The notes under the pieces were generated by a model, which was given only the letters and a program-made list of their open reading frames with translations, had not been told where the DNA came from and made no database searches. Positions 12,990 to 28,664 of a DNA stretch of 64,000 nt are shown here, piece by piece. Source of the DNA: Escherichia coli (GTDB taxonomy: Bacteria > Pseudomonadota > Gammaproteobacteria > Enterobacterales > Enterobacteriaceae). The translations under genes and the position numbers were made by a program. Positions within the stretch are counted from its first letter, which is position 1; each line of letters starts with the position of its first letter. The stretch lies in NCBI RefSeq assembly GCF_003334355.1, contig NZ_QOWP01000002.1. One strand, 5' to 3'.

Positions 12990-14454
<1,465 letters not shown>

Positions 14455-14549
14455 GCTATCATCATTAACTTTATTTATTACCGTCATTCATTTCTGAATG
14501 TCTGTTTACCCCTATTTCAACCGGATGCCTCGCATCCGGTTTTTTTTTA
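14455..14549 (+). ncRNA. micF: MicF antisense sRNA
   Basis: Sequence GCTATCATCATTAACTTTATTTATTACCGTCATTCATTTCTGAATGTCTGTTTACCCCTATTTCAACCGGATGCCTCGCATCCGG plus T9 terminator matches micF; divergent from ompC. Confidence 0.9.
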
Positions 14550-18200: not shown

Positions 18201-18397
<197 letters not shown>

Positions 18398-18400
<3 letters not shown>

Positions 18401-21413: not shown

Positions 21414-23240
21414 ATGCATTATATGAAGTGGATTTATCCACGCCGCTTACGCAATCAAATGATCCTGATGGCAATCCTGATGGTCATTGTCCCAACGCTT
21501 ACTATTGGTTATATCGTAGAAACGGAAGGACGTTCAGCAGTCTTATCTGAAAAAGAGAAAAAACTTTCTGCCGTGGTCAACCTGCTTAATCAGGCACTAG
21601 GCGATCGCTATGATCTCTACATCGACTTACCACGTGAGGAGCGTATCCGCGCATTAAATGTAGAACTTGCCCCCATTACCGAAAATATCACTCACGCCTT
21701 CCCTGGCATCGGTGCTGGTTATTACAACAAAATGCTGGATGCGATAATCACCTACGCGCCTTCAGCGCTATATCAGAATAATGTCGGCGTTACCATTGCC
21801 GCAGATCACCCTGGTCGCGAAGTCATGCGTACAAATACCCCTTTGGTTTATTCAGGCAGGCAGGTGCGCGGCGATATTTTGAATTCAATGCTCCCCATTG
21901 AGCGTAATGGTGAAATCCTCGGCTATATCTGGGCCAATGAATTAACCGAAGATATTCGCCGCCAGGCCTGGAAAATGGATGTGAGGATTATCATTGTGCT
22001 CACCGCCGGTTTGCTGATAAGCCTGCTATTGATTGTCCTTTTCTCCCGTCGCCTGAGCGCCAATATTGATATCATCACCGATGGCCTCTCGACTCTGGCA
22101 CAAAATATTCCCACTCGATTACCACAATTGCCCGGTGAAATGGGGCAAATCAGTCAGAGTGTTAATAACCTCGCCCAGGCACTGCGTGAAACGCGGACAC
22201 TTAACGATCTGATTATTGAAAACGCTGCCGATGGCGTCATTGCCATTGACCGCCAGGGTGATGTAACCACCATGAACCCAGCAGCAGAAGTTATCACTGG
22301 CTATCAACGCCATGAACTGGTAGGGCAGCCTTACTCCATGTTGTTCGACAATACTCAGTTCTACAGTCCAGTACTGGATACGCTGGAACATGGCACCGAA
22401 CATGTGGCGCTGGAGATCAGTTTTCCAGGTCGTGACCGCACCATTGAACTCAGTGTCACTACCAGTCGTATTCATAACACGCACGGTGAAATGATAGGTG
22501 CTTTGGTGATTTTCTCTGATTTAACTGCCCGCAAAGAAACCCAGCGCCGCATGGCGCAAGCAGAACGCCTCGCCACACTGGGTGAGCTGATGGCTGGCGT
22601 CGCGCATGAAGTACGTAATCCGTTAACGGCTATTCGTGGTTATGTACAGATCTTGCGCCAACAAACCAGCGACCTAATACATCAGGAATATCTGTCCGTA
22701 GTACTCAAAGAAATCGATTCAATTAACAAAGTTATTCAGCAATTGCTCGAATTTTCACGTCCACGCCACAGTCAATGGCAACAAGTCAGCCTCAATGCAT
22801 TGGTTGAAGAAACTCTGGTACTGGTACAAACCGCCGGCGTACAAGCGCGGGTCGACTTCATAAGCGAACTGGATAATGAATTAAACCCGATTAACGCCGA
22901 TCGTGAACTGCTCAAACAGGTACTACTGAATATCCTGATCAATGCCGTCCAGGCTATCAGCGCACGAGGGAAAATTCGCATTCAAACCTGGCAATACAGC
23001 GACTCACAACAGGCCATTTCGATAGAGGACAACGGCTGTGGCATTGATCTCTCGCTGCAAAAAAAGATCTTCGATCCCTTTTTCACCACCAAAGCCTCAG
23101 GAACCGGGCTTGGTCTGGCGTTAAGTCAACGCATCATTAATGCCCATCAGGGTGATATTCGCGTCGCCAGTTTGCCGGGCTACGGCGCAACCTTCACGCT
23201 TATTTTACCGATCAACCCGCAGGGAAATCAGACTGTATGA
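21414..23240 (+). CDS. atoS: Sensor histidine kinase AtoS
   Basis: 608-aa protein MHYMKWIYPRRLRNQ... from an internal ATG of the tracked ORF; PAS and HisKA (AHEVRNPL) motifs. Confidence 0.92.
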   Translation: MHYMKWIYPRRLRNQMILMAILMVIVPTLTIGYIVETEGRSAVLSEKEKKLSAVVNLLNQALGDRYDLYIDLPREERIRALNVELAPITENITHAFPGIGAGYYNKMLDAIITYAPSALYQNNVGVTIAADHPGREVMRTNTPLVYSGRQVRGDILNSMLPIERNGEILGYIWANELTEDIRRQAWKMDVRIIIVLTAGLLISLLLIVLFSRRLSANIDIITDGLSTLAQNIPTRLPQLPGEMGQISQSVNNLAQALRETRTLNDLIIENAADGVIAIDRQGDVTTMNPAAEVITGYQRHELVGQPYSMLFDNTQFYSPVLDTLEHGTEHVALEISFPGRDRTIELSVTTSRIHNTHGEMIGALVIFSDLTARKETQRRMAQAERLATLGELMAGVAHEVRNPLTAIRGYVQILRQQTSDLIHQEYLSVVLKEIDSINKVIQQLLEFSRPRHSQWQQVSLNALVEETLVLVQTAGVQARVDFISELDNELNPINADRELLKQVLLNILINAVQAISARGKIRIQTWQYSDSQQAISIEDNGCGIDLSLQKKIFDPFFTTKASGTGLGLALSQRIINAHQGDIRVASLPGYGATFTLILPINPQGNQTV

Positions 23241-24622
23241 CTGCTATTAATCGCATCCTTATTGTGGATGATGAAGATAATGTTCGCCGTATGCTAAGCA
23301 CCGCTTTTGCACTACAAGGATTCGAAACACATTGTGCGAACAACGGACGCACAGCATTACACCTGTTTGCCGATATTCACCCTGATGTGGTGTTGATGGA
23401 TATCCGCATGCCAGAGATGGACGGCATCAAGGCACTAAAGGAGATGCGCAGCCATGAGACCCGGACACCCGTTATTCTGATGACGGCCTATGCGGAAGTG
23501 GAAACCGCCGTCGAAGCGCTACGCTGCGGAGCCTTCGACTATGTTATTAAACCGTTTGATCTCGATGAGTTGAATTTAATCGTTCAGCGCGCTTTACAAC
23601 TCCAGTCAATGAAAAAAGAGATCCGTCATCTGCACCAGGCACTGAGCACCAGCTGGCAATGGGGGCACATTCTCACCAACAGCCCGGCGATGATGGACAT
23701 CTGCAAAGACACCGCCAAAATTGCCCTTTCTCAGGCCAGCGTCTTGATTAGCGGTGAAAGCGGCACCGGGAAAGAGTTGATTGCCAGAGCGATTCACTAC
23801 AATTCGCGGCGGGCAAAGGGGCCGTTCATTAAAGTCAACTGCGCGGCGCTGCCGGAATCGTTGCTCGAAAGTGAACTGTTTGGTCATGAAAAAGGTGCAT
23901 TTACTGGTGCACAAACCTTGCGTCAGGGATTATTTGAACGAGCCAACGAAGGTACTCTGCTCCTCGACGAAATTGGCGAAATGCCGCTGGTACTACAAGC
24001 CAAATTACTACGCATTCTACAGGAACGGGAATTTGAACGGATTGGCGGCCATCAGACCATAAAAGTTGATATCCGCATCATTGGTGCCACCAACCGTGAC
24101 TTGCAGGCAATGGTAAAAGAAGGCACCTTCCGTGAAGATCTCTTTTATCGCCTTAACGTTATTCATTTAATACTGCCGCCTCTGCGCGATCGCCGGGAAG
24201 ATATTTCCCTGTTAGCTAATCACTTTTTGCAAAAATTCAGTAGTGAGAATCAGCGCGATATTATCGACATCGATCCGATGGCAATGTCACTGCTTACCGC
24301 CTGGTCATGGCCGGGAAATATTCGAGAGCTTTCCAACGTTATTGAACGCGCCGTCGTGATGAATTCAGGCCCGATCATTTTTTCTGAGGATCTTCCGCCA
24401 CAGATTCGTCAGCCAGTCTGTAATGCTGGCGAGGTAAAAACAGCCCCTGTCGGTGAGCGTAATTTTAAAGAGGAAATTAAACGCGTCGAAAAACGCATCA
24501 TTATGGAAGTGCTGGAACAACAAGAAGGAAACCGAACCCGCACTGCTTTAATGCTGGGCATCAGTCGCCGTGCATTGATGTATAAACTCCAGGAATACGG
24601 TATCGATCCGGCGGATGTATAA
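23237..24622 (+). CDS. atoC: Sigma-54-dependent response regulator AtoC (NtrC family)
   Basis: 461-aa ORF; receiver domain, AAA+ Walker A (GESGTGKE), GAFTGA sigma-54 contact motif, C-terminal HTH; overlaps atoS stop. Confidence 0.95.
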   Translation: MTAINRILIVDDEDNVRRMLSTAFALQGFETHCANNGRTALHLFADIHPDVVLMDIRMPEMDGIKALKEMRSHETRTPVILMTAYAEVETAVEALRCGAFDYVIKPFDLDELNLIVQRALQLQSMKKEIRHLHQALSTSWQWGHILTNSPAMMDICKDTAKIALSQASVLISGESGTGKELIARAIHYNSRRAKGPFIKVNCAALPESLLESELFGHEKGAFTGAQTLRQGLFERANEGTLLLDEIGEMPLVLQAKLLRILQEREFERIGGHQTIKVDIRIIGATNRDLQAMVKEGTFREDLFYRLNVIHLILPPLRDRREDISLLANHFLQKFSSENQRDIIDIDPMAMSLLTAWSWPGNIRELSNVIERAVVMNSGPIIFSEDLPPQIRQPVCNAGEVKTAPVGERNFKEEIKRVEKRIIMEVLEQQEGNRTRTALMLGISRRALMYKLQEYGIDPADV

Positions 24623-24633
24623 CACCAAAACTT

Positions 24634-24674
24634 GCTATGCAGAAATTTGCACAGTGCGCAATTTTCTGCATAGC
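24634..24674 (+). promoter_or_regulatory. 41-bp near-perfect palindrome upstream of atoD, candidate AtoC enhancer site
   Basis: GCTATGCAGAAATTTGCACAGTGCGCAATTTTCTGCATAGC: outer 12-bp arms are perfect reverse complements; lies about 85-125 nt upstream of the sigma-54 promoter. Confidence 0.6.
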
Positions 24675-24756
24675 CGCTCATTCTCCTTATAAATCCCCAT
24701 CCAATTTATCCCTTCATATTCAATTAGTTAAATAACTAAATCCAATAATCTCATTC

Positions 24757-24772
24757 TGGCACTCCCCTTGCT
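24757..24772 (+). promoter_or_regulatory. Sigma-54 (-24/-12) promoter of atoDAEB
   Basis: TGGCACtccccTTGCT matches the TGGCAC-N5-TTGC consensus with correct GG-N10-GC spacing, about 45 nt upstream of the atoD ATG. Confidence 0.7.
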
Positions 24773-24817
24773 ATTGCCTGACTGTACCCACAACGGTGTA
24801 TGCAAGAGGGATAAAAA

Positions 24818-25480
24818 ATGAAAACAAAATTGATGACATTACAAGACGCCACCGGCTTCTTTCGTGACGGCATGACCATCATGGTGGGCGGATTTATGGG
24901 GATTGGCACTCCATCCCGCCTGGTTGAAGCATTACTGGAATCTGGTGTTCGCGACCTGACATTGATAGCCAATGATACCGCGTTTGTTGATACCGGCATC
25001 GGTCCGCTCATCGTCAATGGTCGAGTCCGCAAAGTGATTGCTTCACATATCGGCACCAACCCGGAAACAGGTCGGCGCATGATATCTGGTGAGATGGACG
25101 TCGTTCTGGTGCCGCAAGGTACGCTAATCGAGCAAATTCGCTGTGGTGGAGCTGGACTTGGTGGTTTTCTCACCCCAACGGGTGTCGGCACCGTCGTAGA
25201 GGAAGGCAAACAGACACTGACACTCGACGGTAAAACCTGGCTGCTCGAACGCCCACTGCGCGCCGACCTGGCGCTAATTCGCGCTCATCGTTGCGACACA
25301 CTTGGCAACCTGACCTATCAACTTAGCGCCCGCAACTTTAACCCCCTGATAGCCCTTGCAGCTGATATCACGCTGGTAGAGCCAGATGAACTGGTCGAAA
25401 CCGGCGAGCTGCAACCTGACCATATTGTCACCCCTGGTGCCGTTATCGACCACATCATCGTTTCACAGGAGAGCAAATAA
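24818..25480 (+). CDS. atoD: Acetate/acetoacetate CoA-transferase alpha subunit
   Basis: 220-aa ORF; 3-oxoacid CoA-transferase subunit A family. Confidence 0.95.
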
Positions 25481-26130
25481 TGGATGCGAAACAACGTATT
25501 GCGCGCCGTGTGGCGCAAGAGCTTCGTGATGGTGACATCGTTAACTTAGGGATCGGTTTACCCACAATGGTCGCCAATTATTTACCGGAGGGTATTCATA
25601 TCACTCTGCAATCGGAAAACGGCTTCCTCGGTTTAGGCCCGGTCACGACAGCGCATCCAGATCTGGTGAACGCTGGCGGACAACCGTGCGGTGTTTTACC
25701 CGGTGCAGCCATGTTTGATAGCGCCATGTCATTTGCGCTAATCCGTGGCGGTCATATTGATGCCTGCGTGCTCGGCGGTTTGCAAGTAGACGAAGAAGCA
25801 AACCTCGCGAACTGGGTAGTGCCTGGGAAAATGGTGCCCGGTATGGGTGGCGCGATGGATCTGGTGACCGGGTCGCGCAAAGTGATCATCGCCATGGAAC
25901 ATTGCGCCAAAGATGGTTCAGCAAAAATTTTGCGCCGCTGCACCATGCCACTCACTGCACAACATGCGGTGCATATGCTGGTTACTGAACTGGCTGTCTT
26001 TCGTTTTATTGACGGCAAAATGTGGCTCACCGAAATTGCCGACGGGTGTGATTTAGCCACCGTGCGTGCCAAAACAGAAGCTCGGTTTGAAGTCGCCGCC
26101 GATCTGAATACGCAACGGGGTGATTTATGA
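25480..26130 (+). CDS. atoA: Acetate/acetoacetate CoA-transferase beta subunit
   Basis: 216-aa ORF; start overlaps atoD stop (ATAATG). Confidence 0.95.
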   Translation: MDAKQRIARRVAQELRDGDIVNLGIGLPTMVANYLPEGIHITLQSENGFLGLGPVTTAHPDLVNAGGQPCGVLPGAAMFDSAMSFALIRGGHIDACVLGGLQVDEEANLANWVVPGKMVPGMGGAMDLVTGSRKVIIAMEHCAKDGSAKILRRCTMPLTAQHAVHMLVTELAVFRFIDGKMWLTEIADGCDLATVRAKTEARFEVAADLNTQRGDL

Positions 26131-27449
26131 TTGGTCGCATATCGCGTTTTATGACGCGTTTTGTCAGCCGGTGGCTTCCCGATCCACTGATCTTTGCCAT
26201 GTTGCTGACATTGCTAACATTCGTGATCGCGCTTTGGTTAACACCACAAACGCCGATCAGCATGGTGAAAATGTGGGGTGACGGTTTCTGGAACTTGCTG
26301 GCGTTTGGTATGCAGATGGCGCTTATCATCGTTACCGGTCATGCCCTTGCCAGCTCTGCTCCGGTGAAAAGTTTGCTGCGTACTGCCGCCTCCGCCGCAA
26401 AGACGCCCGTACAGGGCGTCATGCTGGTCACTTTCTTCGGTTCAGTCGCTTGTGTCATCAACTGGGGATTTGGTTTGGTTGTCGGCGCAATGTTTGCCCG
26501 TGAAGTCGCCCGCCGAGTACCCGGTTCTGATTATCCGTTGCTCATTGCCTGCGCCTACATTGGTTTTCTCACCTGGGGTGGCGGCTTCTCTGGCTCAATG
26601 CCTCTGTTGGCTGCAACACCGGGCAACCCGGTTGAGCATATCGCCGGGCTGATCCCGGTGGGCGATACTCTGTTCAGTGGTTTTAACATTTTCATCACTG
26701 TGGCGTTGATTGTGGTGATGCCATTTATCACCCGCATGATGATGCCAAAACCGTCTGACGTGGTGAGTATCGATCCGAAACTACTCATGGAAGAGGCTGA
26801 TTTTCAAAAGCAGCTACCGAAAGATGCCCCACCATCCGAGCGACTGGAAGAAAGCCGCATTCTGACGTTGATCATCGGCGCACTCGGTATCGCTTACCTT
26901 GCGATGTACTTCAGCGAACATGGCTTCAACATCACCATCAATACCGTCAACCTGATGTTTATGATTGCGGGTCTGCTGCTACATAAAACGCCAATGGCTT
27001 ATATGCGTGCTATCAGCGCGGCAGCACGCAGTACTGCCGGTATTCTGGTGCAATTCCCCTTCTACGCTGGGATCCAACTGATGATGGAGCATTCCGGTCT
27101 GGGCGGACTCATTACCGAATTCTTCATCAATGTTGCGAACAAAGACACCTTCCCGGTAATGACCTTTTTTAGTTCTGCACTGATTAACTTCGCCGTTCCG
27201 TCTGGCGGCGGTCACTGGGTTATTCAGGGACCTTTCGTGATACCCGCAGCCCAGGCGCTGGGCGCTGATCTCGGTAAATCGGTAATGGCGATCGCCTACG
27301 GCGAGCAATGGATGAACATGGCACAACCATTCTGGGCGCTGCCAGCACTGGCAATCGCCGGACTCGGTGTCCGCGACATCATGGGCTACTGCATCACTGC
27401 CCTGCTCTTCTCCGGTGTCATTTTCGTCATTGGTTTAACGCTGTTCTGA
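26127..27449 (+). CDS. atoE: Short-chain fatty acid transporter AtoE
   Basis: 440-aa polytopic membrane protein; overlaps atoA stop. Confidence 0.93.
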   Translation: MIGRISRFMTRFVSRWLPDPLIFAMLLTLLTFVIALWLTPQTPISMVKMWGDGFWNLLAFGMQMALIIVTGHALASSAPVKSLLRTAASAAKTPVQGVMLVTFFGSVACVINWGFGLVVGAMFAREVARRVPGSDYPLLIACAYIGFLTWGGGFSGSMPLLAATPGNPVEHIAGLIPVGDTLFSGFNIFITVALIVVMPFITRMMMPKPSDVVSIDPKLLMEEADFQKQLPKDAPPSERLEESRILTLIIGALGIAYLAMYFSEHGFNITINTVNLMFMIAGLLLHKTPMAYMRAISAAARSTAGILVQFPFYAGIQLMMEHSGLGGLITEFFINVANKDTFPVMTFFSSALINFAVPSGGGHWVIQGPFVIPAAQALGADLGKSVMAIAYGEQWMNMAQPFWALPALAIAGLGVRDIMGYCITALLFSGVIFVIGLTLF

Positions 27450-27479
27450 CGGCACCCCTACAAACAGAAGGAATATAAA

Positions 27480-28664
27480 ATGAAAAATTGTGTCATCGTC
27501 AGTGCGGTACGTACTGCTATCGGTAGTTTTAACGGTTCACTCGCTTCCACCAGCGCCATCGACCTGGGGGCGACAGTAATTAAAGCCGCCATTGAACGTG
27601 CAAAAATCGATTCACAACACGTTGATGAAGTGATTATGGGTAACGTGTTACAAGCCGGGCTGGGGCAAAATCCGGCGCGTCAGGCACTGTTAAAAAGCGG
27701 GCTGGCAGAAACGGTGTGCGGATTCACGGTCAATAAAGTATGTGGTTCGGGTCTTAAAAGTGTGGCGCTTGCCGCCCAGGCCATTCAGGCAGGTCAGGCG
27801 CAGAGCATTGTGGCGGGGGGTATGGAAAATATGAGTTTAGCCCCCTACTTACTCGATGCAAAAGCACGCTCTGGTTATCGTCTTGGAGACGGACAGGTTT
27901 ATGACGTAATCCTGCGCGATGGCCTGATGTGCGCCACCCATGGTTATCATATGGGGATTACCGCCGAAAACGTGGCTAAAGAGTACGGAATTACCCGTGA
28001 AATGCAGGATGAACTGGCGCTACATTCACAGCGTAAAGCGGCAGCCGCAATTGAGTCCGGTGCTTTTACAGCCGAAATCGTCCCGGTAAATGTTGTCACT
28101 CGAAAGAAAACCTTCGTCTTCAGTCAAGACGAATTCCCGAAAGCGAATTCAACGGCTGAAGCGTTAGGTGCATTGCGCCCGGCCTTCGATAAAGCAGGAA
28201 CAGTCACCGCTGGGAACGCGTCTGGTATTAACGACGGTGCTGCCGCTCTGGTGATTATGGAAGAATCTGCGGCGCTGGCAGCAGGCCTTACCCCCCTGGC
28301 TCGCATTAAAAGTTATGCCAGCGGTGGCGTGCCCCCCGCATTGATGGGTATGGGGCCAGTACCTGCCACGCAAAAAGCGTTACAACTGGCGGGGCTGCAA
28401 CTGGCAGACATTGATCTCATCGAAGCTAATGAAGCATTTGCTGCACAGTTCCTTGCCGTTGGGAAAACCTTGGGCTTTGATCCTGAGAAAGTGAATGTCA
28501 ACGGCGGGGCCATCGCGCTCGGGCATCCTATCGGTGCCAGTGGTGCTCGTATTCTGGTCACACTATTACATGCCATGCAGGCACGCGATAAAACGCTGGG
28601 GCTGGCAACACTGTGCATTGGTGGCGGCCAGGGAATTGCGATGGTGATTGAACGGTTGAATTAA
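27480..28664 (+). CDS. atoB: Acetyl-CoA acetyltransferase (thiolase II)
   Basis: 394-aa ORF; thiolase motifs (VNKVCGSG, C-terminal [12 protein letters not shown]). Confidence 0.95.

Follow-up and report, generated by a model that had tools for sequence, protein, structure and literature searches.

The intergenic stretch between atoC and atoD is almost certainly the control region of atoDAEB, an operon for short-chain fatty acids, and constitutes a classical enhancer-dependent sigma-54 promoter; this reading is founded on the anatomy of the sequence, on its conservation and on published binding data. Each element of the region is present, unique and conserved, and the literature documents AtoC binding at these exact sites, sigma-54 binding at the exact promoter motif, inducibility by acetoacetate and dependence on sigma-54. 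Since the published experiments concern this exact sequence and match the interpretation, the reading can be regarded as right and the feature is not new; indeed, it was already known, and the E. coli K-12 sequence is identical to the published one. The scientific gain is accordingly small, the atoDAEB promoter being already documented as a case of enhancer-dependent sigma-54 transcription, and the value of the exercise is that of a positive control, in which a reading made from the letters alone recovered, at the right coordinates, the experimentally defined AtoC sites along with the sigma-54 promoter and the region where the DNA is likely to be bent. What is added here, as an extra to the published accounts of this promoter that were consulted, is a cross-genus comparison: ten other Enterobacterales genera share the three-part layout 3′ of atoC, the AtoC site has a putative kernel consisting of its inner dyad, and the enhancer–promoter distance falls into roughly three classes (~105, 120 and 138 bp).

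The elements suggest the following course of events. Sigma-54 RNA polymerase would be held as a closed complex on the −24/−12 element (24756–24772) and, in the presence of acetoacetate, AtoS would phosphorylate AtoC; the phosphorylated AtoC, placed on the two inverted 20-bp sites of 24634–24674, would be looped onto the polymerase by the A+T-rich spacer, presumably bent at the IHF-like site 24718–24730, and its AAA+ domain, through the GAFTGA loop, would couple ATP hydrolysis to promoter opening, with transcription proceeding from near 24783. The looping geometry, the oligomeric state of AtoC and the exact start site are those parts of the scheme that we infer. The same AtoSC system has also been put to use in biosensors for acetoacetate (PMC7618054).

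The ato locus

The RefSeq annotation of a K-12-like genome maps base for base onto the window, i.e., the whole 64-kb stretch of DNA analysed, and gives the gene order rcsC, atoS, atoC, atoD (24818–25480), atoA, atoE, atoB (ending at 28664) and yfaP. The genes relevant to the control region are:

21414–23240, + strand: atoS, sensor histidine kinase of the AtoSC two-component system (RefSeq annotation; NCBIfam NF008468)
23237–24622, + strand: atoC, NtrC-family sigma-54 enhancer-binding response regulator (NCBIfam NF008469, motifs)
24818–28664, + strand: atoD-atoA-atoE-atoB operon, encoding the alpha and beta subunits of acetate CoA-transferase, a short-chain fatty acid transporter and acetyl-CoA acetyltransferase (RefSeq annotation)

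The atoC–atoD spacer (24623–24817, 195 bp), enclosed between two + strand genes, is 100% identical to that of K-12 derivatives such as C600, the window being E. coli K-12-like. The antisense sRNA MicF, found upstream of ompC at 14454–14547 on the + strand (Rfam RF00033, 116.8 bits), also fits the K-12 map.

The identity of the proteins is given by scores well above the cut-offs of the respective NCBIfam equivalogs, namely 991.9 bits for AtoS (NF008468, cut-off 646), 999.8 bits for AtoC (NF008469, cut-off 714) and 444.7 bits for AtoD (NF007394, cut-off 315). AtoC is built of a receiver domain, an AAA+ domain with GAFTGA and a Fis-type helix-turn-helix; its translation contains both a Walker A motif (GESGTGKE) and GAFTGA (...HEKGAFTGAQT...), and the Pfam domains PF00072, PF00158, PF25601 and PF02954 are found on a near-identical AtoC protein cluster. 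The preliminary description, which had an AtoC with GAFTGA encoded directly upstream, is borne out by the motif in the translation and by the equivalog match.

The palindrome and the AtoC sites

The enhancer consists of the following parts:

24634–24653, + strand: left 20-bp AtoC half-site GCTATGCAGAAATTTGCACA, matching the published verified site at −184 to −165 from atoD
24655–24674, − strand: right 20-bp AtoC half-site GCTATGCAGAAAATTGCGCA (as read on the − strand), matching the published verified site at −163 to −144
24648–24660, no strand: inner dyad core TGCACA-g-TGCGCA, the part of the palindrome common to all eleven genera compared

Together the half-sites form a palindrome of 41 bp (24634–24674) that starts 12 nt 3′ of the atoC stop codon and whose two 20-nt arms, complementary at 18 of 20 positions (90%), flank one central G; the right arm reads TGCGCAATTTTCTGCATAGC on the + strand and has two mismatches with respect to the left one. 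The palindrome lies 83–123 nt upstream of the −24 element, with its centre (24654) ~105 bp upstream of the GG, in agreement with the near-perfect 41-bp palindrome that had been placed ~85–125 nt above the −24/−12 element. Because the two TGCA-type tetramers of each 20-bp arm (TGCA-N6-TGCA) are 10 bp apart and the arm centres are separated by 21 bp, the four AtoC contacts would be expected to lie on the same side of the helix.

Counted from the atoD ATG at 24818, the two sites listed in Table 5 of Pilalis et al. 2011 as experimentally verified AtoC sites, identical to the half-sites above in sequence, strand and distance from atoD, coincide exactly with 24634–24653 and 24655–24674 (PMC3118216). 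The same study, citing Matta et al. 2007, describes the verified AtoC target as an inverted 40-bp palindrome of two 20-bp sites which, upstream of atoDAEB, controls both acetoacetate inducibility and AtoC binding, as confirmed in vivo by ChIP, and from which bound AtoC activates sigma-54-dependent expression (PMC3118216). Thus, the proposal that the palindrome sits where an NtrC-family enhancer is expected holds, both of its arms being AtoC sites in print.

Dyad symmetry alone is silent on which protein is bound, and the palindrome might be thought of as the operator of another regulator (e.g., a repressor), with AtoC acting elsewhere. The chances of this are minimal: the verified AtoC sites in print are these exact sequences (PMC3118216), the half-site has no further copy in the window (at ≤3 mismatches to GCTATGCAGAAATTTGCACA the two arms are the only matches, where 0.02 would be expected by chance), the core accompanies atoC in each of the eleven genera, as far from a sigma-54 promoter as enhancers commonly are, and the recognition helix of AtoC is as invariant as the core itself. 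The published ChIP of AtoC and its reported footprint contradict another regulator as well.

Assignment to AtoC being preferred, one might further suppose that these elements have no regulatory role and either match by chance or stem from a dispersed repeat of the REP/BIME type. A single exact −24/−12 match is indeed not rare in 64 kb, and the window does contain REP-type repeats at other places; however, this explanation can be given next to no weight, insofar as the palindrome is unique, no second palindrome with 20-nt arms matching at ≥18 of 20 positions and a spacer of 0–3 nt being present anywhere in the 64-kb window, and none of 30 first-order Markov simulations of the window produced a comparable one. 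Furthermore, the elements are found in the same order and at corresponding positions in eleven genera, and within E. coli they do not vary (one palindrome column excepted, see below) while the flanking sequence does; this conservation and the published binding data already refute a chance or repeat origin. A REP-type repeat or a known RNA is also excluded because Rfam finds no family in the spacer, REP-type or other, the REP-type matches being all elsewhere. These are six matches to the REP-derived naRNA4 (RF02564), three of which are located between eco and mqo (5988–6297, + strand), two between rcsB and rcsC (18208–18398, − strand) and one between nrdA and nrdB (48578–48648, − strand). Pilalis et al. 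2011 found one AtoC-like motif within a conserved ~40-bp repeat of many promoters (PMC3118216), a repeat that may be a naRNA4/REP-type element.

The sigma-54 promoter, the predicted transcription start and the atoD leader

Downstream of the enhancer the region contains:

24756–24772, + strand: sigma-54 promoter atoDp, CTGGCACTCCCCTTGCT, 17 nt (exact motif; ChIP-seq motif for atoD)
24783, + strand: predicted transcription start, giving a 35-nt 5′ UTR (spacing rule; in agreement with the "35" of the ChIP-seq table, PMC4591121)
24806–24810, + strand: Shine-Dalgarno-like GAGGG, 7 nt before the atoD ATG (read from the sequence)

The −24 GG (24758–24759) and the −12 GC (24770–24771) are one helical turn apart, on the strand of atoD and upstream of it, and TGGCACTCCCCTTGC at 24757–24771 (+ strand) is the sole exact TGGCAC-N5-TTGC in the window on either strand; with 46 nt between the C of TTGC (24771) and the atoD ATG (24818), the match is where it had been announced, ~45 nt above the gene. 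The sigma-54 promoter consensus is YTGGCACG-N4-TTGCW, from which CTGGCACTCCCCTTGCT departs once (G>T). The motif alone is not rare, shuffles of the window giving a mean of 0.32 exact matches and at least one match in 28 of 100 cases; its significance derives from its being located in the right spacer and on the right strand, behind the gene of an enhancer-binding protein, and from its conservation.

In the sigma-54 ChIP-seq study of Bonocora et al. 2015 the motif CTGGCACTCCCCTTGCT is given for atoD on the + strand with a distance of 35 and in class "C", which we read as designating a previously confirmed promoter (PMC4591121). That motif is, letter for letter, the sequence of 24756–24772, and with this the claim of a sigma-54 promoter at atoD, made from the letters, coincides with a published binding site (PMC4591121). 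In addition, in the gSELEX analysis of Shimada et al. 2021 the RpoN holoenzyme selects the atoC>atoD spacer in vitro (PMC8743547).

As to the start site, it is predicted at 24783 because C24771 is counted as −12. Matta et al. 2007 (J Bacteriol 189:6324) reportedly obtained a DNase I footprint of AtoC extending from −146 to −107 with respect to the start site and are said to have established the sigma-54 dependence of the promoter, which they reportedly also mutagenized; the numbering of this footprint would place the start ~3 nt upstream of the one predicted here. The AtoC binding assays and the promoter mutagenesis with sigma-54 dependence that the preliminary description had called for are thus already in print, according to Pilalis et al. 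2011 and, reportedly, Matta et al. 2007; published work is likewise reported to have AtoC protecting 24634–24674 and the acetoacetate induction of atoD affected by loss of rpoN or atoC and by mutations in GG (−24), GC (−12) or the TGCA tetramers. A scan of the + strand between 24300 and 25000, based on the consensus only, found no sigma-70-like −35/−10 site.

The A+T-rich spacer and the IHF-like site

Between enhancer and promoter two further features can be distinguished:

24675–24756, no strand: A+T-rich enhancer–promoter spacer, presumed looping/bending region (base composition)
24718–24730, + strand: IHF-like core ATTCAATTAGTTA, with one mismatch to the IHF core WATCAANNNNTTR

The GC content of the spacer goes down to 0.27 (60-nt windows) and A+T makes up 69% of the sequence that separates the dyad core from the −24 element, so that an AT-rich stretch does lie between palindrome and promoter, as had been noticed. 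The suggestion, made at the same time, that this stretch could accommodate a DNA-bending protein fits a candidate IHF-like core which does not vary within E. coli and recurs at a similar place in the other genera. The window as a whole shows no enrichment of the IHF pattern, with 58 matches vis-à-vis 49.8 expected, and the match at 24718–24730 is weak by itself. Matta et al. 2007 reportedly found IHF to be required at ato; taken together with the conserved motif, this makes 24718–24730 the candidate site at which IHF would probably bend the DNA. Literature searches on IHF at ato found no confirming source.

Conservation within E. coli

Of 5,426 complete E. coli genomes, 3,924 contain the ato control region. 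Variation was assessed in an alignment of eight divergent spacers that cover the identity range 94.8–100%. The −24/−12 element and the Shine-Dalgarno sequence are invariant in all of these, and so is the block 24717–24736 that contains the IHF-like core; a single column of the 41 that make up the palindrome varies (A24644T, in one strain). As many as 13 of the 82 columns of the spacer 24675–24756 are variable, and all of them fall outside the IHF-like block.

Conservation across genera

Loci for comparison were retrieved by one AtoC protein search and ten contig look-ups, with AtoC identities from 88% down to 65%; the ten loci belong to another Escherichia species, Klebsiella, Citrobacter, Enterobacter, Edwardsiella, Entomohabitans, Atlantibacter, Pragia, Leminorella and Morganella. 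The synteny atoS-atoC-atoD-atoA-atoE is found in all ten, the Morganella locus having no listed atoS gene call.

All eleven genera have TGGCA[CT]-N5-TTGC once per 6.4-kb locus, with the C of the −12 element 42–50 nt before atoD, and an IHF-like match with 0–2 mismatches 34–49 bp upstream of the −24 GG. The dyad core TGCRCA-N1-2-TGYGCA is present in every atoC–atoD spacer of the eleven genera, with TTCACA in Enterobacter, and the full 41-bp palindrome sequence is kept only in the closer genera. None of the eleven AtoC proteins deviates in the recognition helix, LGISRRALMYKLQEY, or in GAFTGA. Thus, judging from the sequences compared, the conserved kernel of the AtoC site appears to be the inner dyad TGCRCA-N1-2-TGYGCA and not the whole 41-bp palindrome, and the invariant recognition helix would match this invariant inner core.

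The distance between core and −24 GG is ~104–107 bp in eight loci including that of E. coli, 120 bp in Entomohabitans and 137–140 bp in Pragia, Leminorella and Morganella. The core of the last three is ~33 bp (three helical turns) farther from the promoter than that of E. coli, and their atoC–atoD spacers (L137, 3877–4185; L138, 3877–4161; and L139, 3886–4163, respectively) are 80–110 bp longer.

A scan of genome contigs with the pattern ATGCAGAAA-N15-19-TTTCTGCAT returned at least 120 loci (L010–L129) whose palindromes are unrelated and belong for the most part to MAGs of Lachnospiraceae and Clostridia; the pattern is loose, and no Enterobacteriaceae are found among the matches listed. Among these same matches, several contigs, and in one case at least eight, belong to one and the same Lachnospiraceae, Oscillospiraceae or Clostridia MAG (e.g., L116–L123, L016–L018, L060–L062 and L067–L069), which suggests that the pattern represents a multicopy palindromic element of those MAGs, unrelated to ato.

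A possible transcript-level role of the palindrome

Given that the palindrome begins so close to the atoC stop codon and that E. coli has no other terminator-like site on the + strand between atoC and atoD, it would form the final structured part of the atoSC mRNA. It could be supposed, accordingly, that it functions mainly at the level of the transcript, as a 3′ hairpin terminating or stabilising this mRNA, and not as a protein-binding enhancer. The predicted RNA fold is stable (−23.3 kcal/mol, z = −5.3), but any palindrome folds well as RNA, and an intrinsic terminator is not apparent: the stem, though long, is rich in A+T, CGCTCATTCTCC comes next in place of a T-run, and the terminator scan made no call on the + strand in 24300–25000. 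In favor of the supposition, the outer arms undergo symmetric double changes in Entomohabitans and Atlantibacter, and the three genera with a separate hairpin and T-run 3′ of atoC no longer have the long palindrome; on the other hand, the inner core is kept across genera even where the hairpin is weak (−7 to −10 kcal/mol), and the binding of AtoC to exactly these arms, together with their control of inducibility, is published (PMC3118216). A mainly transcript-level function is therefore very improbable, and a terminator or hairpin as the sole function of the palindrome is excluded by its conflict with the published AtoC binding.

The palindrome being first of all the AtoC enhancer, it might in E. 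coli and its close relatives double as a 3′-end barrier or stabiliser of the atoSC mRNA, shielding atoDAEB from read-through. This dual role is unlikely. The comparative pattern with which it would agree comprises, in Entomohabitans and Atlantibacter, outer arms that differ from those of E. coli by paired changes at four mirrored positions, so that symmetry is kept even though the recognition helix of AtoC is invariant, and, in Pragia, Leminorella and Morganella, symmetry restricted to the inner core (10–11 of 22 mirrored positions) along with the separate hairpin and T-run directly 3′ of atoC. The latter were recognized by folding the segments directly, the terminator scans of these three loci and of Edwardsiella being prone to flag the AtoC core wherever its context is T-rich and to miss loops of >8 nt. 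The pattern is consistent with a dual role, spanning only two or three independent lineages, and the paired changes of the arms would have simpler causes, either the reading of both arms by the same protein or template switching that corrects a quasi-palindrome.

Comparison with known systems

The E. coli K-12 atoDAEB promoter (Matta 2007; PMC3118216) is the same object as the one described here, with identical half-sites, positions and −24/−12 element. Among other systems, glnAp2 with NtrC (NRI), the paradigm of sigma-54 promoters, resembles ato in having a phosphorylated activator of the receiver–AAA+–HTH type with GAFTGA, dyad sites located ~100–140 bp above a TGGCAC-N5-TTGC promoter and DNA looping. 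AtoC is a paralogue of NtrC, since its 473 bits against the NtrC model fall short of that model's cut-off. NtrC sites have the consensus TGCACC-N5-GGTGCA, from which ato differs by its four TGCA-type tetramers in a 41-bp palindrome; moreover, glnAp2 is not known to need IHF, whereas the ato spacer contains the conserved IHF-like site. The three-part layout is shared with IHF-assisted sigma-54 promoters such as nifH/NifA and prpBCDE/PrpR, in which the −24/−12 element is preceded by an A+T-rich spacer that has an IHF-type site near its middle and, farther upstream, by the sites of the activator; prpBCDE requires prpR, ntrA and ihf (cited in PMC2965739). These two systems differ from ato in their activators, signals and site sequences, and the IHF site of ato is here a candidate recognized from its sequence.

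Integrity of the locus

Loss of or damage to the ato locus is common in E. coli (21414–28664 of the window; L001, 3595–4575; L009, 1501–1666), ~1,500 of the 5,426 complete genomes being without the ato region. In strain PSS-12 an IS5 is inserted within atoS. In strain CUVM53 the match to the spacer ends just past the −24 GG (query base 166, corresponding to 24765 of the window) and the annotation gives atoD as a pseudogene truncated at its N terminus, which is consistent with a deletion. Many E. coli contigs encode an AtoC of 309–310 amino acids that has no receiver domain, a single such protein (P0084) accounting for 295 contigs. Outside E. coli, atoD is called short or split on the Klebsiella contig (L131, 4083–4577) and on the Citrobacter contig (L132, 551–2504, 4085–4753 and 5403–6386), the latter having atoS and atoE split as well; these short or split genes could reflect either pseudogenisation or assembly errors, and atoC and the control region are intact on both contigs.
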